A stretch of 57,005 nucleotides of DNA from an uncultured virus (IMG/VR IMGVR_UViG_3300042452_000440) (taxonomy: Duplodnaviria; Heunggongvirae; Uroviricota; Caudoviricetes). Shown here one piece after another: positions 2,738 to 56,931 of this stretch; within the stretch, counting starts at the first letter, position 1, and each line of letters opens with the position of its first letter. A model generated the notes under the pieces. It did no database searches. It saw only the letters and a program-made list of their open reading frames with translations, and was not told the DNA's origin. The stretch lies in the IMG/VR virus record IMGVR_UViG_3300042452_000440. One strand, 5' to 3'. A program made the position numbers and the translations under genes.

Positions 2738-3508
2738 CTATCCGAATACAATGGAATAAATCAAAGCGTCATCAAGAACGCTACGACCATTAACTCTATA
2801 AGTTCCTGAGATATTTATATCCCCTCCAACATCCAGTTTATACGCTGGTTGGACGCTATTAATACCAACACTGCCAGTTGAAGGAATAAAAACAAATCCA
2901 GTTGATGCAATACCAACCGAACTTACACCAGTATTATTCGCAAATGTTGGATATACAGGAGATGCCGTTAAATCCTGAGGAATAACATTAAAAGCATTAA
3001 CCCCTATAAGGTTAGAACCATCACCATAGAATGCAACAGCACTGACAATGCCGGTAGGACCGTACATCGTAATTGCAGATCCAACTTGCAATGTTGATTG
3101 CGGATTGGTTGTCCCAATACCCAAGTTTCCGGGATTCGGAACAAATACAATCTTATTAGTTGAAATACCAACCGAAGTTACACCAGTATTATTCGCAAAG
3201 GTTGGATATACTGGTGAAGATGTTAGATCTTGGTTAATGACATTGAATGCATTAACCCCTATAAGATTAGAACCATCACCATAATAGACAACAGTTGTGA
3301 TTCCAGGTTGAGAAGAAGTTACAATACCTGAGGATGTAACTTTAACCTGATCAAGTATTACATCACCAACAACGTGAAGTTTTGCCTGTGGATTTGTGGT
3401 CCCGATGCCGACATAGGGAGTCGCTGTCGTAGCAATACCAATATTTCTATTGGAGTCGTCTACTATTATAAAACCAGCAACCTGTGACAGCTCCCTATTA
3501 TTTGCCAT
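2738..3508 (-). CDS. Tail fibre protein
   Basis: GIGTTNP repeats; two YGDGSNLIGVNAFNV modules. Confidence 0.7.
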   Translation of the reverse strand: MANNRELSQVAGFIIVDDSNRNIGIATTATPYVGIGTTNPQAKLHVVGDVILDQVKVTSSGIVTSSQPGITTVVYYGDGSNLIGVNAFNVINQDLTSSPVYPTFANNTGVTSVGISTNKIVFVPNPGNLGIGTTNPQSTLQVGSAITMYGPTGIVSAVAFYGDGSNLIGVNAFNVIPQDLTASPVYPTFANNTGVSSVGIASTGFVFIPSTGSVGINSVQPAYKLDVGGDINISGTYRVNGRSVLDDALIYSIVFG

Positions 3509-3553
3509 TAGAAAGTTATCTTTCTAGTTATTTATTGAACTTCTTTACCCGTA

Positions 3554-4273
3554 TCATTCCAAAATATGATGAGGTACAAATGGCATTTCTGATTTAACAC
3601 CAGAGATCAAATCCTTAATATCATCATACTGATTGCACAGATCATCTTCAACAATTCCATAAGATGGATATAAGGTTTTTACTTCTCCTAAATTTGCAAT
3701 TTCAGTTTCATTAATTGAAGTTTTTTTTCCAAGAAGTCCGAATGATTTCACATAGAAATTAGAAAGATCAAAGTTTTTTACCCTATCAATTTCAAAGTAA
3801 TCACAAACAATATCAATAGTTTCTTTCTTGTTGCCCAAAAAAGAATTTGTCTCTATCCATAATATTTCAGGAGTATCACTTATCCATTGAATAATATTCA
3901 ACCATATAAAAACAATTTTTTCCAAATCACTATCAAACTGATATTCTTTCAATGACGGATGACAATGATTTAGATGATACTCATACTTCGTAGATACTAT
4001 ATTATCAATATAATTTGATGTCTTAATCTTATATAAGTGATGCTTTAATTTCCTATACAGGAATACTTTTTTTCCAGTAAGATGTCCAGAATAGTGACAT
4101 AAAGAACTTTGAAACTTTATGACAGTATTATCGGTTAATTCTTCAATCAGTTTATCATTCTGTATGAGATTATGAATCCAAGACGGTTCAGCATATACAA
4201 CTGTAGAATTTGCAAGCAACGTTGCCATTAAAGTAGAACCACAATGAGACGTATGATATATTTGATTAATCAT
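3554..4273 (-). CDS. Putative sulfotransferase-fold protein
   Basis: N-terminal YHTSHCGSTL resembles the HxxRxGST(L) PAPS-binding loop; followed by YAEP and later FLYR. Confidence 0.45.
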   Translation of the reverse strand: MINQIYHTSHCGSTLMATLLANSTVVYAEPSWIHNLIQNDKLIEELTDNTVIKFQSSLCHYSGHLTGKKVFLYRKLKHHLYKIKTSNYIDNIVSTKYEYHLNHCHPSLKEYQFDSDLEKIVFIWLNIIQWISDTPEILWIETNSFLGNKKETIDIVCDYFEIDRVKNFDLSNFYVKSFGLLGKKTSINETEIANLGEVKTLYPSYGIVEDDLCNQYDDIKDLISGVKSEMPFVPHHILE

Positions 4274-41734: not shown

Positions 41735-41846
41735 AGGGTTTTAGGTTGAATACTACTAGTTATTCTAGTAAGTACTTTTACTATGTCAAGTTTGTGTTGA
41801 TACAAAAATATAGATTAAGAAAATCTAAAATTTGTAATATTTGTAA

Positions 41847-41930
41847 CGGAAGCGGTTGGATTCGAACCAACGGTGCTATTAACACGCTTGTTTTCAAGAC
41901 AAGTTCCTTAAACCACTCGGACACGCTTCC
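41847..41930 (-). tRNA. tRNA-Ser(TGA)
   Basis: Type II cloverleaf; CTTGT-CTTGAAA-ACAAG. Confidence 0.93.
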
Positions 41931-41941
41931 AATAAAAGTCC

Positions 41942-42670: not shown

Positions 42671-42678
42671 TATTTATA
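42671..42678 (-). promoter_or_regulatory. T4-type late promoter TATAAATA for dps
   Basis: Exact motif 18 nt upstream of the dps ATG. Confidence 0.75.
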
Positions 42679-42680
42679 AG

Positions 42681-42752
42681 TGGGCAATATCGGATTCGAA
42701 CCAATGACCGTCTGCGTGTAAAGCAGCTGCGCTACCGCTGCGCCAATCGCCC
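42681..42752 (-). tRNA. tRNA-Val(TAC)
   Basis: GGGCGAT...CTGC-TTTACAC-GCAG...ATTGCCCA; lies outside the main array. Confidence 0.9.
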
Positions 42753-44606: not shown

Positions 44607-46085
44607 TCAGAAACGGAAGGTCGTCTGAATCACACCACCATAGTTAGAAGATGCGTTCTTAAATGCCTGATTATTAGAAACATAGAAGATTGCAGGAGTC
44701 ACGCTGATGTTATCGCTAACCTTGTAACGATAGAAGGCTTCCCACATCAGAGCGTCTTTGGTCAGCGTAGGTGCGTTGCCAGGTTGACCGATGGCAAAAC
44801 CAGAGGCATTACCCTTAGCAAACACATCACTCCACTGAACACCAGCCATCCAAGTTTGGGAGTTGGTAGCAGCATTAGGAGTTGCAGGACCACTCACATA
44901 GTTCCAACCATAAGCGGCAGAGACCGAAGGAATGATGCCAGACTTCTTAGGTTGCCAGTAAGCATTCAGAGCATAACCGTTAGAGGTTTGGTTAGCGGCA
45001 AGAGTACCACCATTACCAGCAACACCATTGAAGGTACGAACACGAGTGCCTTCCGTACCATTACGATAACCGAAAGCAATACCGTATTGAGGAGCACGAT
45101 AACCAACTTGTGCCAGAGTATTCAGAGCACCAGAGGCATCAAATTCACCTTTGGTAGAATCAGAACCGTTCTGAGCAACATAGTTCAAGTTAGCAACGAA
45201 ACCTTTCTTACCCGCTTGTGCCCACTGAGCACCGAAACCAGAACCAGTTGCCTTGTTATAGACACCAGGAGCACCAGCAACAGCAAAGAAGTCAAGAACA
45301 TCCGACTTGTATGCAGTAGGAATCCATGCCATCTCAGTGTTACGAACCAGAGCACCAGCAGTCAGGGTTACGCCCTTAGCAAGTGCGGGGAAGCTGTAGT
45401 ACAGACGGTCAAGATTGACTTGGTTTGCATAAGATTCTGCCTTATCCAGTTTGAACAGAGAAGAGGAAGAACCGAAAGGTTGCGAAGAGAAGTTACCAGA
45501 ACGCAGACGAGTGCGAAGCAGATCCTTACCAGTGAAGGAAGTATCAAAGTTCAGACGAAGATCGTAGTTGAATGCGGTGTTACCAACGTTGGTTCCGTTA
45601 GCAAGACGAGCACCTTCTACACCACCAAGAACGAAGGTTGCTTCACCTTTCAGTTTGGTAGTAGTAGAAAACTGAGTTGCTTGAAGTTGACCAACTTGTG
45701 CTTCCAGTTTATCAACACGACCACGAATAACAGCAAGTTCTTCACGGAACTCAGTAGCAAGACGTTGAAGTTCATCAGTAACTTCGGTTACACGATCAAG
45801 GCAAGCATTCAGAAGTGCAGCTGCCTCATAACGAGTCATTGCCTTACCACCACCATAGGTGCCGTTAGGATAACCAGCAACACAACCATAACGCTCAACA
45901 AGATTATTGAGTGCCTGATATGCCCAATCAGTAGGTTGAACATCAGACAGTTGAGTGATACTTGAAACCTGTTCCGAAGTGGAATATTGGTTGACTGCTA
46001 CCATATTCAGATCTGCGGCATTCGCAGTAACAGGAGCAACCATTCCCAGAGCAACAGGTGCAAGCATCAGTTGTTTGAGTTTCAT
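44607..46085 (-). CDS. Cyanobacterial outer-membrane porin (SomA/OprB-type with SLH domain)
   Basis: SDVQPTDWAYQAL..LVERYGCVAGYP...TRYEAAALLNACL, FSTTTKL.G, terminal TTFRF. Confidence 0.93.
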   Translation of the reverse strand: MKLKQLMLAPVALGMVAPVTANAADLNMVAVNQYSTSEQVSSITQLSDVQPTDWAYQALNNLVERYGCVAGYPNGTYGGGKAMTRYEAAALLNACLDRVTEVTDELQRLATEFREELAVIRGRVDKLEAQVGQLQATQFSTTTKLKGEATFVLGGVEGARLANGTNVGNTAFNYDLRLNFDTSFTGKDLLRTRLRSGNFSSQPFGSSSSLFKLDKAESYANQVNLDRLYYSFPALAKGVTLTAGALVRNTEMAWIPTAYKSDVLDFFAVAGAPGVYNKATGSGFGAQWAQAGKKGFVANLNYVAQNGSDSTKGEFDASGALNTLAQVGYRAPQYGIAFGYRNGTEGTRVRTFNGVAGNGGTLAANQTSNGYALNAYWQPKKSGIIPSVSAAYGWNYVSGPATPNAATNSQTWMAGVQWSDVFAKGNASGFAIGQPGNAPTLTKDALMWEAFYRYKVSDNISVTPAIFYVSNNQAFKNASSNYGGVIQTTFRF

Positions 46086-46206: not shown

Positions 46207-46278
46207 AGCGGAAGACGAGATTCGAACTCGCAACAACCTGCTTGGAAGGCAGGGACTCTACCGTTGAGTTACTTCCGC
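46207..46278 (-). tRNA. tRNA-Gly(TCC)
   Basis: CCTGC-CTTCCAA-GCAGG. Confidence 0.93.
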
Positions 46279-46280
46279 AA

Positions 46281-46334
46281 TGGTGGGGATTTACCCAGCC
46301 TCAGAGTTTCCTCTTCACAGGCACGGAACCCCAC
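46281..46334 (-). ncRNA. Unknown small RNA with kink-turn and CCA-ended stem
   Basis: GTGGGG...GCC-TGT-GA-AGAG-GAAA-CTCT-GA-GGC...CCCCACCA. Confidence 0.45.
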
Positions 46335-46360
46335 GCACTTCACTTCACACGGACTTGTAA

Positions 46361-46389
46361 AGTATATGACATAATGATCATTATGTCAA
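46361..46389 (-). promoter_or_regulatory. Sigma70 promoter TTGACA-N17-TATACT containing a perfect 22-bp palindrome
   Basis: TGACATAATGATCATTATGTCA at 46367-46388. Confidence 0.7.
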
Positions 46390-46390
46390 G

Positions 46391-46463
46391 AGCCCCCGAC
46401 AAGACTTGAACTTGCGACAACCGCTTTACAAAAGCGGTGCTCTACCAGCTGAGCTACAAGGGC
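46391..46463 (-). tRNA. tRNA-Thr(TGT)
   Basis: CCGCT-TTTGTAA-AGCGG. Confidence 0.93.
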
Positions 46464-46466
46464 GAA

Positions 46467-46674
46467 TGGGTATCGAGTGCCCGACACCCGCAGAAGACAC
46501 TTTCTGCGATTTTCACTGCATTAGAGGGCAGTGATAAAAGAAAACACCAAACCTTATTTTTCCTGTTCTCAGGAAGGCACCCAAATGGGGTGGGAGACCT
46601 TGCAAGGGTTTATACCTCCAAAGTTTGTCCAGCGTTTTCAATTTGAAAGAATCGGACATTTCCAATCCTTTCAA
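46467..46674 (-). ncRNA. ~200-nt multi-helix structured RNA of unknown family
   Basis: At least seven hand-identified helices, several with G-U pairs, filling the Asn-Thr spacer. Confidence 0.5.
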
Positions 46675-46747
46675 CTGGGGCGGCAGGGATCGAACCTGCG
46701 ACCTAGATGTTAACAGCATCCCGCTACTACCGCTGAGCTACACCCCA
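46675..46747 (-). tRNA. tRNA-Asn(GTT)
   Basis: GGATG-CTGTTAA-CATCT. Confidence 0.92.
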
Positions 46748-46812
46748 ATATTTGTTTTTATGTGTAAGGGAAAGGAGAGCTCTTGGACGGAACCGCAGGA
46801 TCACTTTCCCAG

Positions 46813-46883
46813 TGGAGAATAGCAGAATCGAACTGCTAATAAGTGCTTGCAAAGCACCCGTTATACCGTTTAACTAATTCCCC
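46813..46883 (-). tRNA. tRNA-Ala(TGC)
   Basis: GGTGC-TTTGCAA-GCACT; G3-U70 identity pair. Confidence 0.92.
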
Positions 46884-46890
46884 AAATTGG

Positions 46891-46962
46891 AGGCGGGGGG
46901 TGGAGTTGAACCACCTACCTGAAGCTTATGAGACTTCTGTGCAACCGTTACACTTCCCCACG
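46891..46962 (-). tRNA. tRNA with CAT anticodon (Met or Ile2), atypical
   Basis: GAAGT-CTCATAA-GCTTC; C1xC72 mismatch, A8, encoded CCA. Confidence 0.75.
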
Positions 46963-47026
46963 ATGATGGATTGAGTGTGATACATCTCATAAGGATGTAA
47001 CAGGGACTCAACCTCCAACAATTTAT

Positions 47027-47055
47027 ATAGTAACAAACTTTTGCAAGTTTGTCAA
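47027..47055 (-). promoter_or_regulatory. Internal sigma70 promoter TTGACA-N17-TACTAT in the tRNA array
   Basis: -35 47050-47055, -10 47027-47032. Confidence 0.7.
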
Positions 47056-47056
47056 G

Positions 47057-47130
47057 CGTCCTTTGAGAGATTCGAACTCCCGACACATAGGTTCGTAGCC
47101 TACTGCTCTATTCCACTGAGCTAAAAGGAC
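47057..47130 (-). tRNA. tRNA-Arg(ACG)
   Basis: GTAGG-CTACGAA-CCTAT. Confidence 0.93.
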
Positions 47131-47133
47131 AGG

Positions 47134-47205
47134 CGAAGGGTGAGGGATTTGAACCCCCATCGCAAGGTTTTGGAGACCTGCATCTTACCATTAGACCAAC
47201 CCAAC
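47134..47205 (-). tRNA. tRNA-Trp(CCA)
   Basis: AGGT-CTCCAAA-ACCT; two U-U mismatches in the acceptor stem. Confidence 0.8.
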
Positions 47206-47209
47206 AAGG

Positions 47210-47282
47210 TGTCCGTGAGAGGATTCGAACCTCCAACAAATAGATCCTTAGTCTATTGCCTCTTCCATTGGGCTACACGGAC
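47210..47282 (-). tRNA. tRNA-Leu(AAG), short variable arm
   Basis: ATAGA-CTAAGGA-TCTAT; G37, A73. Confidence 0.82.
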
Positions 47283-47285
47283 TGG

Positions 47286-47356
47286 TTGAGAAACTAGGAC
47301 TCGAACCTAGATAAACTCCTTCAAAGGGAGGTGTCCTGCCATTAGACGATTTCTCA
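47286..47356 (-). tRNA. tRNA-Gln(TTG)
   Basis: CTCC-CTTTGAA-GGAG; U1-A72; encoded CCA. Confidence 0.88.
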
Positions 47357-47361
47357 ATAGG

Positions 47362-47437
47362 AGTTCAGGGTGGGATTTGAACCCACGGTGAAAGAAGTTT
47401 TGCAGACTTCTGCATTCGACCACTCTGCCACCTGAAC
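47362..47437 (-). tRNA. tRNA-Cys(GCA)
   Basis: GAAGT-CTGCAAA-ACTTC; U73. Confidence 0.92.
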
Positions 47438-47439
47438 GG

Positions 47440-47511
47440 GGTGACGTATGGGAATCGAACCCATCTACCCAGATTCACAATCTGGTTCCTTATCCGCTAG
47501 GATAACGTCAC
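47440..47511 (-). tRNA. tRNA-His(GTG)
   Basis: CCAGA-TTGTGAA-TCTGG; C73. Confidence 0.9.
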
Positions 47512-47512
47512 A

Positions 47513-47586
47513 TAGCAGTAGGTGGATTTGAACCACCGTCCATAGGAATATGAGTCCCGTACTCTACCAGACTGAGCTATACTGCT
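47513..47586 (-). tRNA. tRNA-Met(CAT)
   Basis: GGGA-CTCATAT-TCCT; initiator vs elongator not resolved. Confidence 0.85.
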
Positions 47587-47590
47587 GAGG

Positions 47591-47673
47591 CGGAAGATGT
47601 TGGATTCGAACCAACGGAGGTTTTACCCTCACGGTTTAGCAAACCGCTGCATTAACCACTCTGCCAATCTTCC
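47591..47673 (-). tRNA. tRNA-Ser(GCT)
   Basis: Type II; GCGGT-TTGCTAA-ACCGT. Confidence 0.93.
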
Positions 47674-47787
47674 ATAAAGAAGGATAGTCAGTCCTCCTAC
47701 CTTTATTCTCCTTGTCGAAATACTTGTCTCTACGGATTGACTAGATCCTAAAACTTTCTTCCTCAGATGGATTAAGGTTCACCAGAG

Positions 47788-47859
47788 TGGAACCGACAAG
47801 ATTTGAACTTGTGACCGCTCGGTTATCAGCCGAGTGCTCTACCACTGAGCTACGGTTCC
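47788..47859 (-). tRNA. tRNA-Ile(GAT)
   Basis: CTCGG-CTGATAA-CCGAG. Confidence 0.95.
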
Positions 47860-47971
47860 AAAACTGGGTGAAAGGTCATTTGCTCTTTGCCCTTTCCATT
47901 CCACATTCAGAAGATTGCGTTTGCAACCACTTTCTTCCTATACCCAGTAAGTTTGAGAGTAAAACTCTCAA

Positions 47972-48045
47972 TGGGAACAATCGGATTTGAACCGATAACA
48001 CCTTGATCTTCAATCAAGTGCTCTACCAATTGGAGCTATGTTCCC
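47972..48045 (-). tRNA. tRNA-Phe(GAA)
   Basis: CTTGA-TTGAAGA-TCAAG. Confidence 0.93.
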
Positions 48046-48048
48046 AAG

Positions 48049-48120
48049 TCCAGAAGGTTGGATTTGAACCAACGTCCTCACCGCCCCAAACGGTGCCGTC
48101 TACCGCTGACTTACTCCTGG
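48049..48120 (-). tRNA. tRNA-Pro(TGG), second copy
   Basis: CACCG-TTTGGGG-CGGTG. Confidence 0.9.
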
Positions 48121-48124
48121 ATGG

Positions 48125-48196
48125 TAGTCTCGAAGGGATTTGAACCCTCGTTTTTGCTGTGAAAGAGCAACGTCCTAACCATTAGACGACGAGACC
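48125..48196 (-). tRNA. tRNA-Glu(TTC)
   Basis: TTGCT-CTTTCAC-AGCAA; encoded CCA. Confidence 0.92.
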
Positions 48197-48392
48197 AGAT
48201 GGGAGGGGTATCCCACACGAAGTTACTTACGGATTACGCTTCGTAGCCTTATGAATCCTGCCATCATCCGATGGTGGTTAGAAATCCCTCCCCAATTCCA
48301 GTTCTTGCTACGTCATTCCTTACCTAACTGGCAACATTCAGGATGACGTGCTACAACCGCCAAGGAGGGACACTCCATCGGCAGCGTAGCAA

Positions 48393-48465
48393 CGACCCTA
48401 ACGGGATTCGAACCCGTGATACCACCGTGACAGGGTAGCGTGATAGACCACTTCACTATAGGGTC
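48393..48465 (-). tRNA. tRNA-Asp(GTC)
   Basis: CTACC-CTGTCAC-GGTGG. Confidence 0.93.
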
Positions 48466-48469
48466 AAGG

Positions 48470-48560
48470 TGGGAGAGGAGGGAATTGAACCCCCGATGGT
48501 TCCGATGTAACGGTTTTACAGACCGCAGCCACACATATTGCCAACAGTAGCCACTCTCCC
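48470..48560 (-). tRNA. tRNA-Tyr(GTA) with enlarged D-arm
   Basis: GCGGT-CTGTAAA-ACCGT; long variable arm. Confidence 0.85.
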
Positions 48561-48563
48561 AAA

Positions 48564-48636
48564 TGGGTCTGGTCGGACTCGAACCGACGACTTACAGGTT
48601 AAAAGCCCGCTACTCTACCAACTGAGTTACAGACCC
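48564..48636 (-). tRNA. tRNA-Lys(TTT), first gene of the array
   Basis: GCGGG-CTTTTAA-CCTGT. Confidence 0.93.
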
Positions 48637-48660
48637 ACATAATATAGGATAAATATTCAG

Positions 48661-48696
48661 TTGTCTAGGTTCTCGGTGAGGGGTGATCCCTCAACC
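48661..48696 (-). promoter_or_regulatory. Putative boxB-boxA (rrn-type) antitermination element
   Basis: TGAGGG-ATCAC-CCCTCA hairpin followed by GAACCTAGACAA, close to cyanobacterial rrn boxA GAACCTTGAAAA. Confidence 0.5.
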
Positions 48697-48704
48697 ACTT
48701 GATT

Positions 48705-48761
48705 AGAATACCACCGTTTGGTCTCTGGGGGGAGATTGGTGGACGCTTAGGAAACTGTCAC
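48705..48761 (-). promoter_or_regulatory. Putative early promoter of the tRNA array
   Basis: GTGACAGTT-TCCT-AAGCGTCCAC inverted-repeat motif and extended -10 TGGTATTCT. Confidence 0.45.
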
Positions 48762-48768
48762 AGGCAAC

Positions 48769-48803
48769 AAAAAAGGGGAGGAAACTTTTGGTTTCTCTCC
48801 CCT
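48769..48803 (-). terminator. Intrinsic terminator (attenuator) between the leader ORF and the tRNA array
   Basis: GGGGAG-A-GAAAC-CAAAA-GTTTC-CTCCCC-TTTTTT. Confidence 0.85.
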
Positions 48804-48829
48804 GTCTTTTTGCTTTTATGGATTACATC

Positions 48830-48931
48830 TTACATATGTCTATCCATATCCGCAAACAGGGGAGCACCCTCAATATGCCAATAGCGGCAATCGAGATTAC
48901 TAAACTGTTTTGTGGGCATCGGGAAAGACAT
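48830..48931 (-). CDS. 33-aa leader peptide of a putative tRNA-sensing attenuator
   Basis: MSFPMPTKQFSNLDCRYWHIEGAPLFADMDRHM*; residues 5-23 are 19 different amino acids; overlaps the antiterminator arm. Confidence 0.8.
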   Translation of the reverse strand: MSFPMPTKQFSNLDCRYWHIEGAPLFADMDRHM

Positions 48932-48952
48932 TGTTTTCGACCTAAGTATGTT

Positions 48953-48983
48953 TATTTATAAGACTTTTATTTTAAAAAGTCAA
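48953..48983 (-). promoter_or_regulatory. Composite promoter of the leader: TTGACT-N17-TATAAA overlapping T4 late TATAAATA
   Basis: -35 48978-48983; TATAAATA 48953-48960; 22 nt above the leader ATG. Confidence 0.75.
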
Positions 48984-49057
48984 CGGGTTAGGTAGGATTC
49001 GAACCTACGACTCACGCTTTAGAAGAGCGTTACTCTATTCCACTGAGTTACTAACCC
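48984..49057 (-). tRNA. tRNA-Arg(TCT)
   Basis: ACGCT-CTTCTAA-AGCGT. Confidence 0.93.
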
Positions 49058-49071
49058 CTGTGAACCCTCAT

Positions 49072-49100
49072 ATTATAAGGTATGAGGAGAACCTTGTCAA
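49072..49100 (-). promoter_or_regulatory. Consensus sigma70 promoter for tRNA-Arg(TCT)
   Basis: TTGACA (49095-49100)-N17-TATAAT (49072-49077). Confidence 0.85.
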
Positions 49101-54762: not shown

Positions 54763-56931
54763 TTAGAACCTAAACTTAACCTTTCCTGCGATAGAATTTG
54801 TAGTAACTCCACCATCAGATCCGTGAGAACCTTCAACGAACAAGAACTCTTTATAATCTAAGGATGCAGAAACTTCATAAGAACTATCAGTTGCATAAGA
54901 ACCTTCAACACTTACACCAAATAAATCTTTTTTCTTACCACCGAAACGGGTTTCTAACTTAATACCTGCTTCACCAACGTGAGTTGTCTTATTATATGCA
55001 TCAACTGTTCTTGCAGACTCAATAGAACCAGTTTCAGTATATCCATTCCTTCTTACATTCAGAACTGTATACCCAACAAATGGTTTTACTGATTTATTGA
55101 GATGCCAATATAAACGATTAGAAACCCACCACTCGTTTCCAGTTGTTTCGCCACCATTATTAAATACACCTTCTACGGTTCTATCATACTTATAATTGCT
55201 GTTTGCAATCGCAGCATTGGTATTCAGGGTTAAAGTATTACCTCTCAACTCACTGAATATTCCATAATGATTTTTATTTTGCTGGGTCTTTGAATCAACT
55301 CCGTTGAGGGTTATATTGATTTGATTATACTGGAATCCAACTGTCCAACCTTTGGTTACATCAAACTCAAATCCACCACCAAAGATTTTAGAATCAGCAG
55401 AATATCCATCAGCATTATACGATTGAGTAAAACGATTATTCTCAAATACTCTCAATCTTTCATTTCTCTTAGTTGGTTCGTGATTAAGAAGTCCATTAAT
55501 ACTATCATTAATGTTATCAAGAACATCAAACTGATCTATACGTCCAGAAAGAACATCATGAGTATTATTCGTATCAACAGAAAGAAGCAGTGAATAAATT
55601 ACAGTATTATCACTATAAGTATCTTGCTGCAATAAAGGAGTTTCAGTTGTAGTTGCAAAATCTCTTCTAATCTTCTGAACTCCATCTTTCTCAGATGATG
55701 TATGTGTTATCTCAGTTTTAGAAACAACAGGAAGTCCAGGTGCAGGAACAGTCACTGAGTTTATTAATGTTGGTGGAGTTGGAGTTGGTTCAGGTGTAGG
55801 TTCAGGAGTTGGTTCAGGAGTTGGTTCAGGAGTTGGTTCAGGAGTTGGTTCAGGAGTTGGTTCAGGTGTAGGTTGAGGAGTTGGTTCAGGAGTTGGTTCA
55901 GGTGTAGGTTGAGGAGTTGGTTCAGGTGTAGGTTGAGGAGTTGGTTCAGGTGTGGGCTCTGGTTCTGGAGTGGGTTCTGGTTCTGGAGTGGGTTCTGGTT
56001 CTGGTGTAGGTTCAGGAGTTGGAGTTGGTGCTACTTCATCAACAGATGGTGCATCTGGATTGTTTGGAGCAACAGGTGTAAATGCTTGACCATTCTGTGT
56101 TGTAGTTCCAGGCTGACTATCAACTAAGAGAACTGGTGATAATGCAGTGTCTCCAAGATTGAATACTGCAAATCCTAAGAGATAATCACCATCAGATCCT
56201 ACTTGATATGTTGAATACTGCCATCCAGTAGAACCATAAGTTCCTGTGGAATAATCACCAGTTCCAGGATTAGTAAATCCAAGTAATGCATAGTTTTGAA
56301 GTTGATTATTAACTGTTACTGTTGGAGATGAACCTGTTCCTTGATAGACAAGTGATGTAATAGAACCATCATTGAAAGGAACATAATCAGTTCCAATGTA
56401 GTTCCAAGACATTGTATAAACTTTACCTGTCTCTAAAACAACGGACTTTGTAATCCAAGCAGCATCAGTTGGATTTGGATTTCCTAATCCAGATGCTTGT
56501 TGTTGTTGGATGAGAAGATCTTTGATTGCTTGGTTTTCTGCCGCAGTTAATCCAAGTGCTTCTGTTGCTTGGTTAAATGTTGCTTGACCATTTGGTTGCA
56601 ATGCAGCACCAGCATCTCCATAAGGAGCAAACTCCCAAGTTGTTGGTGTTACTGCGGGTGCATGATATGGATTAGGAGATCCATCTTGTAGAGTTGGACT
56701 TCCTACTGCTCCGTGAGAAGGTGCATTGAAGATTACTGGATTATCTACAACACTAACACCCGTTCCCTGCCCAGTGATTGTACTGTCTAGTGTTCCTGTT
56801 TGAGTTCCAGTATTCCATCCTGTGGTATTTCCAGACTCAAAATCTGTACCAGAAATAGTATCTGCAAATGCAGTTGGTGCTCCCATTAAAAGAGCAGACG
56901 CTAAAACAAGCGCCTTCTTAGCGTAAGACAT
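54763..56931 (-). CDS. Autotransporter-like outer-membrane protein with Pro/Thr/Glu linker
   Basis: Signal peptide, passenger domain, (PTPE)n linker, beta-barrel ending GKVKFRF. Confidence 0.75.
55781..56029. repeat. Tandem 12/18-bp coding repeats (PEPT/PQPT)
   Basis: (GGTTCAGGAGTT)n and variants. Confidence 0.9.

Follow-up and report, generated by a model that had tools for sequence, protein, structure and literature searches.

A candidate ribosome-dependent attenuator with a leader reading frame before the tRNA array of T4-like cyanophages

Ribosome-mediated attenuators of the trpL, hisL, pheL, leuL, thrL and ilvL type combine a short leader open reading frame (ORF) with four pairing regions (1:2, 2:3, 3:4), whereby a region inside the ORF competes for the 5' arm of an intrinsic terminator placed before the regulated genes. 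An element of this general build was found in the IMG/VR virus record IMGVR_UViG_3300042452_000440, a stretch of 57,005 nucleotides (nt), hereafter called the window, to which as a whole all coordinates refer. Here, a 33-codon leader ORF and a terminator precede an array of 20 tRNA genes. Based on sequence comparison, this element is probably a ribosome-dependent transcription attenuator before the tRNA-Lys-led array in a group of T4-like cyanophages. We class it as a new form of ribosome-mediated attenuation, placed before tRNA genes. The logic proposed for it is shared with the trpL type, in that slow decoding would lead to read-through. Unlike the trpL type, it would regulate tRNAs and not enzymes, holds 17-20 amino-acid kinds once or twice each in place of tandem codons, and folds the whole ORF including the AUG into one long hairpin with the stop well beyond region 2; in addition, it is viral and lies behind a TATAAATA box.

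Two further systems sense translation more generally. BmrCD of Bacillus subtilis is described as a leader-ORF attenuator induced by translation inhibitors (PMC4191407). As is proposed for the cyanophage element, systems of this type act by transcription attenuation and sense a general slowing of ribosomes on the leader ORF, not one amino acid; in contrast, they control bacterial resistance or transport genes. The matching of codons to tRNAs in the present element is not known to have a parallel elsewhere. The trn operon of Anabaena sp. PCC 7120 is reported to be a long array of tRNA genes that responds to translational stress by induction (PMC8421152, PMC10272220). It resembles the cyanophage locus as a supernumerary tRNA array, the expression of which rises when translation is impaired. 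Its control is attributed to the protein repressor TrcR, unlike the mechanism proposed here, and the operon is cellular, being located on a megaplasmid. The full text of PMC8421152 contains the term "leader peptide" 0 times.

T-box riboswitches share with the proposed switch the sensing of tRNA status and the choice between terminator and antiterminator. They differ by binding uncharged tRNA directly, by having no ORF, and by regulating aminoacyl-tRNA synthetase and amino-acid genes. A T-box was considered for this locus and rejected, the Rfam T-box model with its specifier loop and T-box motif being unmatched. Within open-access full texts and bioRxiv, no report was found that connects tRNA arrays, whether of phages or of bacteria, with leader peptides or attenuation. 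To our knowledge, the regulation of phage tRNA arrays is essentially unknown, and we know of no leader-peptide attenuation of tRNA genes. If the virus-encoded feedback on tRNA supply proposed below is true, it would be the first case of an attenuator acting on tRNA genes, and its leader peptide would be the first to read most of a tRNA pool at once. Attenuation could then sense overall decoding capacity as opposed to one amino acid, and this would explain how a phage of 38% G+C fits its tRNA output to demand in a host that we presume to be richer in G+C. Such an element would also offer a small, naturally occurring module that senses how available tRNAs are, and cultured phage-host pairs carrying it exist with S-PM2/Synechococcus WH7803 and S-CREM1/CB0101.

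Anatomy and conservation of the leader

The leader region consists of the following features, all on the minus strand:

48830..48931, minus strand: leader ORF of 33 codons plus TAA, translated as MSFPMPTKQFSNLDCRYWHIEGAPLFADMDRHM (coding part 48931-48833, stop 48832-48830)
48836..48845, minus strand: 3' strand of helix P0, GGAUAGACAU, pairing with the start-codon region AUGUCUUUCC (48931-48922)
48896..48928, minus strand: variable 5' half of the ORF, codons 2-12 (SFPMPTKQFSN), forming the 5' strand of the ORF hairpin and proposed to do the sensing
48910-48905, minus strand: region 1, AAACAG, inside the 5' half
48869..48895, minus strand: apical hairpin H1, CUCGAUUGCC-GCUAUU-GGCAUAUUGAG, codons 13-21, helix 5 of the model, 100% paired
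48854..48865, minus strand: region 2, GCUCCCCUGUUU, codons 23-26
48805-48797, minus strand: region 3, the 5' arm of the terminator, ACAGGGGAG
48769..48805, minus strand: intrinsic terminator with the stem AGGGGAGAGAAAC / GUUUCCUCCCCU, the loop CAAAA and U6 (48774-48769)
48638..48768, minus strand: conserved structured spacer of ~130 nt between terminator and tRNA-Lys, with further hairpins

The ORF, its helices, the terminator and the synteny of the locus are conserved. The leader is present in 281 of the 304 loci examined, with an ORF length of 31-37 codons, and these loci include S-CREM1 as well as Synechococcus phage S-PM2, the nearest cultured relative of the leader region. At 75% DNA identity, S-PM2 shows the same order of tRNA-Arg(tct), promoter, 34-codon ORF, terminator and tRNA-Lys, while S-CREM1 carries a further leader variant, annotated as a hypothetical protein. 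The 34-codon ORF is absent from the S-PM2 annotation. Instead, the record (3443-3799 of locus L001) lists a 118-codon coding sequence, S-PM2d160, on the opposite strand over tRNA-Arg and leader, which is probably a mis-annotation. A 20-mer of the ORF core recurs exactly in 108 IMG/VR stretches, 71 metagenome stretches and S-PM2. The terminator sequence matches 99 stretches, 40 of which lack the exact 20-mer and thus display leader variation not selected by it. This variation comprises a synonymous change of CGC to CGT, replacements of Y by D, E or K and of C by M, two core changes that keep the frame (3 nt deleted, 9 nt inserted), and a diverged class of 34-37 codons.

The original prediction had named a non-conserved frame as a way to refute it. 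The frame is conserved, since the ORF retains its start and stop not only in S-PM2 and S-CREM1 but also in uncultured contigs by the hundred, and indels inside the ORF are of 3, 6 or 9 nt versus 1-4 nt in its flanks. One exception is locus L022, in which an 8-nt deletion near the ORF end gives a new stop. On the protein level, the N-terminal half is highly variable, and the core peptide of the main class, DCRYWHIEGxPLF, is replaced by SDWNLCVHIASESPSA and DYRWYIVETPLC in other classes. Searches of Rfam, Pfam and PHROGs with the leader yielded no family, and a peptide search among 1.84 billion proteins returned 3 representative clusters only. Relatives of the leader are also represented in RNA-library contigs from three studies, one contig (912 nt) spanning the terminator; such contigs give no RNA ends, strand or level and may reflect DNA carry-over, and they were not used as evidence.

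Folding of the 323-nt leader region yields -93.2 kcal/mol (z = -4.6), a value reached by none of 100 shuffled sequences. In the minimum-energy model, the ORF forms a single long hairpin followed by the terminator with its G+C-rich stem of 12 base pairs (bp) and U6. The start region pairs with codons 30-32, so that the start codon is sequestered within helix P0, and region 1 with its neighbours pairs with region 2 and its neighbours. Across 70 distinct sequences, pairing in this off-state model amounts to 91.4% compared with 37-48% in slid controls, and 22 pairs are changed on both sides versus 10.6 +/- 2.4 in shuffles (0/500). Compensatory variants of P0 occur in L031 (start AUGACCUACC with GGUAGGUCAA) and L008 (AUGACU with AGUCUU), and the C-terminal peptide is replaced wholesale (DRH, VGQ, ESL), yet the pairing with the start region is retained. 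The hairpin H1 contains the 20-mer invariant in many relatives, and a compensatory change from UGCC/GGCA to UACC/GGUA was read from the alignment of S-CREM1. The region 1:2 anti-antiterminator (helices 3-4) comprises 31 pairs, 12 of them with changes on both sides, and AAACAG:CUGUUU is replaced by AAGCA:UGCUU in the S-PM2 group. For the terminator, helix 7 of the model, 93.6% pairing and both-side changes at 9 pairs were found.

Region 2 would have two alternative partners, namely region 1 with the 5' strand in the off state and the terminator 5' arm in the antiterminator. The 9-bp pairing of regions 2 and 3 is kept to 91.6% compared with 55-75% in slid controls. In all 12 usable representatives, the best duplex of the terminator 5' arm with the ORF lies 7-10 codons before the stop. 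Within five sequence classes, these duplexes range from -11.7 to -20.2 kcal/mol, and 8 of the 12 beat shuffled sequences (p<=0.013). The ORF segment follows the terminator arm across classes, reading CUCCCCUG, UCCCUCC, GCCCCUG or CCCCCC. The diverged class retains the region-2 motif with its codon phase shifted (UCC CCU UCU versus GCU CCC CUG), which points to a constraint acting on region 2 at the RNA level. An Rfam scan over 48638-48983 at E<=1 gave nothing beyond the tRNA clan except a weak, chance-level small RNA match on tRNA-Arg.

Three promoter-like sites surround the leader:

48953..48983, minus strand: putative leader promoter with TTGACT (48983-48978), a 17-nt spacer and TATAAATA (48960-48953)
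49072..49100, minus strand: sigma-70-type promoter upstream of tRNA-Arg(tct), consensus TTGACA-17-TATAAT, 12/12 matches
48639-48667, minus strand: sigma-70-like site in the spacer, TTGACA/TAGACA, 17 nt, TATTAT, with the -10 box adjoining tRNA-Lys

Of 116 unique upstream sequences, 115 contain the TATAAATA box without mismatch, 19-24 nt 5' of the AUG; a -35 element TTGACN is present in 81 and missing in 27. The box equals the consensus of T4 late promoters, in which it lies ~7 nt before the transcription start and no -35 element is required. The window holds 4 such boxes, where chance predicts 4.25, and each lies on the gene strand; one of them (42671-42678, minus strand) lies directly after tRNA-Val and before the next ORF. 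By their layout, transcripts from the promoter at 49072..49100 would run into the leader. On the level of synteny, tRNA-Arg(tct) is the next tRNA upstream of the leader in 154 of 253 loci with sufficient upstream sequence, and tRNA-Lys(ttt) is the first downstream tRNA in 204 of 219 loci, mostly 170-200 nt past the stop. Some relatives carry an extra insert of ~75 nt between terminator and tRNA-Lys.

Leader codons and array content

The tRNA genes relevant for a comparison with the leader are as follows:

46207..48637, minus strand: tRNA array of 20 genes, 19 called by ARAGORN and 1 CAT tRNA by Rfam
48468-48560, minus strand: Tyr-like tRNA gene of 93 nt, called Arg(gcg) by ARAGORN and below every Rfam tRNA threshold
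46891-46962, minus strand: second tRNA with a CAT anticodon, found by Rfam (46.4 bits) and not called by ARAGORN
48984-49057, minus strand: tRNA-Arg(tct) by ARAGORN, immediately upstream of the leader and outside the array
42680-42752, strand not listed: tRNA-Val(tac) by ARAGORN, outside the array
41846-41931, strand not listed: tRNA-Ser(tga) by ARAGORN, outside the array

According to the original prediction, the leader contains exactly the amino acids served by the array. For the window itself, its components were borne out. Residues 5-23 (48919-48863) are 19 different amino acids without a repeat, and Val is absent throughout the 33-residue peptide. The 19 ARAGORN calls within 46207-48637 are K, "Arg(gcg)", D, E, P, F, I, S(gct), M, H, C, Q, L(aag), W, R(acg), A, N, T(tgt) and G(tcc). 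Together with the second CAT tRNA, they give 20 tRNAs for 19 amino acids without Val, which requires acceptance of the gene at 48468-48560 as Tyr. This gene occupies the slot of tRNA-Tyr in S-PM2 and aligns with the acceptor stem and the CTGTAAA anticodon loop (GTA) of the latter. Its D-arm region is aberrant, being replaced and longer, and its relatives are variously called Tyr, Arg(gcg) or not called; it may be a degenerate or unconventional tRNA. The genes for tRNA-Val, Ser(tga) and Arg(tct) are all separate from the array, and the six-codon amino acids pair as claimed with the boxes AGT/GCT, CTC/AAG and CGC/ACG.

The diversity of the leader as such is unusual, not extreme. Its run of 19 is the longest repeat-free residue run in the six frames of the window (runner-up 16). 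At least 19 amino-acid kinds occur in 76 of 11458 33-residue windows of long ORFs and in 3 of 117 short ATG-ORFs, the leader being one of these 3. Within the family, the 17-20 kinds are spread along the ORF.

As a family rule, the exact mirror failed. We compared 37 non-redundant leader-array combinations with at least 3.9 kilobases (kb) of downstream sequence, not including the window, in which leaders hold 18-20 kinds and arrays serve 11-19 amino acids. The mean set difference between leader and array was 3.84 versus 3.90 +/- 0.10 in shuffled pairings (p=0.37), and larger arrays do not go with more diverse leaders (r = -0.24). Besides the window, only the combination L209, from a diverged leader class, is an exact match. 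The leader of L004-type arrays contains C, W, F, P and L, five amino acids for which these arrays have no tRNA. The L212 leader, on the other side, lacks Arg alone, and no Arg tRNA was seen in its 3.9 kb array. The shared lack of Val is weak evidence because 47 of 61 main-class leader variants lack Val and 19 of the 37 arrays have no Val tRNA within about 4 kb; a Val tRNA lies downstream of 17 of 31 leaders without Val and of 1 of 6 leaders with Val.

That the leader was built to hold exactly the amino acids and codon boxes of its array, one codon per tRNA, is consequently a very improbable explanation and largely refuted by this whole-leader comparison, in which 36 of 37 relatives are not exact. 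It would account for the 19 of 19 matching kinds of the window with Val lacking on both sides, for L209, and for the parallel absence of Arg in L212. The 3' part of the ORF, however, contributes 10 of the 19 codons of the run and does not track the array (see below), and its codons are dictated by RNA pairing, with CTC, CGC, CCC, CTG and GCG among the rarest of the phage. Codons rare in the phage are frequent in the leader helices (CTC 7%, CGC 5%, CCG 3% and GCG 7% of their own families). The literal exact mirror thus appears largely as a coincidence of two near-complete sets.

An association between leader and array is found in the variable 5' half, defined as the part before the D of the core; its statistics also count codon 13 (L), although this codon belongs to hairpin H1. 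The co-variation anticipated by the original prediction is thus absent for the whole leader and modestly present for this half. The 5' halves contain on average 1.03 amino-acid kinds without a tRNA in the array compared with 1.23 +/- 0.07 in shuffled pairings (p=0.005), and 76.8% of their codons are served by their own array versus 72.8 +/- 0.9% (0/3000). For Pro, the odds ratio between 5' half and array is 34.

Since shuffles ignore relatedness, a tree was built from the DNA between leader core and tRNA-Glu, and leader halves were scored on their own array and on that of their sister. In the first data set, the 5' half scored better on its own array in 10 sister pairs, worse in 1 and equally in 8 (p=0.012). 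With metagenome loci included, 23 informative pairs gave 15 better, 2 worse and 6 equal (p=0.002). The 3' parts of the same ORFs, differing in 22 of the 23 pairs, gave 4 better, 8 worse and 11 equal. The result for the 5' half is stable to the choice among four decoding rules (15:2 or 15:3, p 0.002-0.008) and is driven by 15 different codon kinds, whereas long open frames of the same loci, taken as control, showed a much smaller effect (mean +0.008). The 5' half provides real but limited support for a leader that reads the tRNAs supplied by its array.

A possible attenuation mechanism and its alternatives

The anatomy of the locus is of the trp type, with a leader ORF, the pairing regions 1:2 and 3:4, a candidate 2:3 antiterminator, and an intrinsic terminator followed by tRNA genes. 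Because, in addition, the 5' half that tracks the array is the very strand whose occupation would free region 2, we read the element as an attenuator. We infer translation of the ORF, stalling, read-through and the timing of these events during infection. Transcription would begin at the TATAAATA box or upstream at the tRNA-Arg promoter. The ORF RNA would fold on itself, the start pairing with the ORF end and region 1 with region 2, with H1 as the cap. With no ribosome or a fast one, this hairpin would hold region 2, the terminator would form, and the transcript would end ~130 nt before tRNA-Lys. A slow ribosome on the 5' half would cover the 5' strand, allowing region 2 to pair with the terminator 5' arm and transcription to read through into the array. 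The lack of tandem codons, the many amino-acid kinds and the use of own-array codons in the 5' half suggest that the leader would gauge how long some dozen different codons take to be decoded in total, resulting in a negative feedback on tRNA supply. The more specific proposal of a virus-encoded feedback, with a 5' half of ~12 codons tuned lineage by lineage to the array and summed decoding deciding on read-through, is tentative, and we rate its chances at somewhat below even.

Several observations weigh against the attenuator reading. In the main alignment, covariation of the region 2:3 pairing amounts to 2 pairs, which is matched by 207 of 500 shuffles and is not significant. The antiterminator is thermodynamically weaker than the terminator, which wins equilibrium folds and remains favoured when a "ribosome footprint" constraint is imposed, a result that neither supports nor refutes the switch model. 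If the switch is real, it must act kinetically, because the terminator wins at equilibrium in spite of this constraint. Between region 2 and the stop codon lie 7 codons, and a terminating ribosome would not mask region 2, unlike in trp. Classical attenuators use tandem regulatory codons, of which this leader has none, and near-complete coverage of the amino acids is not universal, S-PM2-type leaders holding 15 kinds only.

On the side of the codons, the 5'-half association is small (about 4-7 percentage points), the loci are mosaic with sister pairs perhaps not fully independent, and ARAGORN misses some tRNAs. Independent-pairs tests on single traits, made for Pro and for Phe, are underpowered (p 0.125-1); for Pro, 3-4 of 6 contrasts point in the same direction, short of significance (p 0.125-0.25). 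Under standard wobble, the 5'-half codons CCC (24/24) and TCT (22/33) are unserved. Finally, a sigma-70-like site lies between terminator and tRNA-Lys in 63 of 119 unique spacers. In 44 of the 119, the window included, only 0-3 nt separate its -10 box from tRNA-Lys; a start from it would fall within the tRNA, and array expression without read-through would be possible. Promoter-like sites that end at 47027 and 46361 within the array, as listed in the original prediction, were found as well. Because of these internal sites and those abutting tRNA-Lys, part or much of the array could escape control by the leader. The spacer site as the true promoter of the array was not adopted and is retained as a caveat; 56 of the 119 spacers have no such site.

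The same sites would suit an explanation in which the ORF simply encodes a small phage protein and has a promoter and terminator to itself, its position before the array being mere synteny and the array being driven by other promoters. The layout of a gene plus terminator, the conserved main-class core and the annotation of the S-CREM1 ORF as a hypothetical protein would also agree with this explanation. We consider it quite unlikely, as the core differs between classes (SDWNLCVHIASESPSA, DYRWYIVETPLC), the N-terminal half is highly variable, and neither a Pfam or PHROG family nor more than the 3 protein clusters came up. Moreover, C-terminal residues are swapped wholesale with the RNA pairing retained, and the region-2 motif survives in another codon phase. 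Another explanation is a structured non-coding RNA in which the frame is tolerated and unused. It could be, for instance, a 5' leader or processing platform of the tRNA precursor, or a small RNA with its 3' end at the terminator. Such an RNA would fit the strong and covarying structure, the nucleotides invariant even at synonymous sites (the 20-mer of the 108 IMG/VR stretches and S-PM2), the sequestration of the start codon in P0 and the additional conserved hairpins between terminator and tRNA-Lys. However, frame, start and stop survive divergence and at least 5 in-frame indel events next to flanks that take indels of 1-4 nt, the association of 5'-half codons with tRNAs is hard to explain without decoding, and no Rfam family matched; a purely non-coding role is unlikely on these grounds.

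Genomic surroundings

The window is part of a T4-like cyanomyovirus, a freshwater cyanophage, as judged from its gene content, from S-PM2 as the closest cultured relative and from freshwater and lake metagenomes that hold near-identical DNA. Its large ORFs are all located on the minus strand and include psbA/psbD-type reaction-centre proteins, a PstS-like binding protein, a 6-phosphogluconate dehydrogenase, a 2OG-Fe(II) oxygenase and a phage tail lysozyme. No second leader was seen before the separate tRNA-Val, tRNA-Ser(tga) or tRNA-Pro genes of the window. Within the array, long spacers of 110-210 nt without a noted ORF separate some of the tRNAs (48197-48391, 47860-47970, 47674-47786 and 46464-46673, minus strand). 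Two outer-membrane-type genes are unusual for a cyanophage to carry. One, directly 3' of the tRNA array, encodes an OprB-family porin with an SLH domain (44607-46085, minus strand), and the other, further on, a protein with an autotransporter beta-domain (54763-56931, minus strand).

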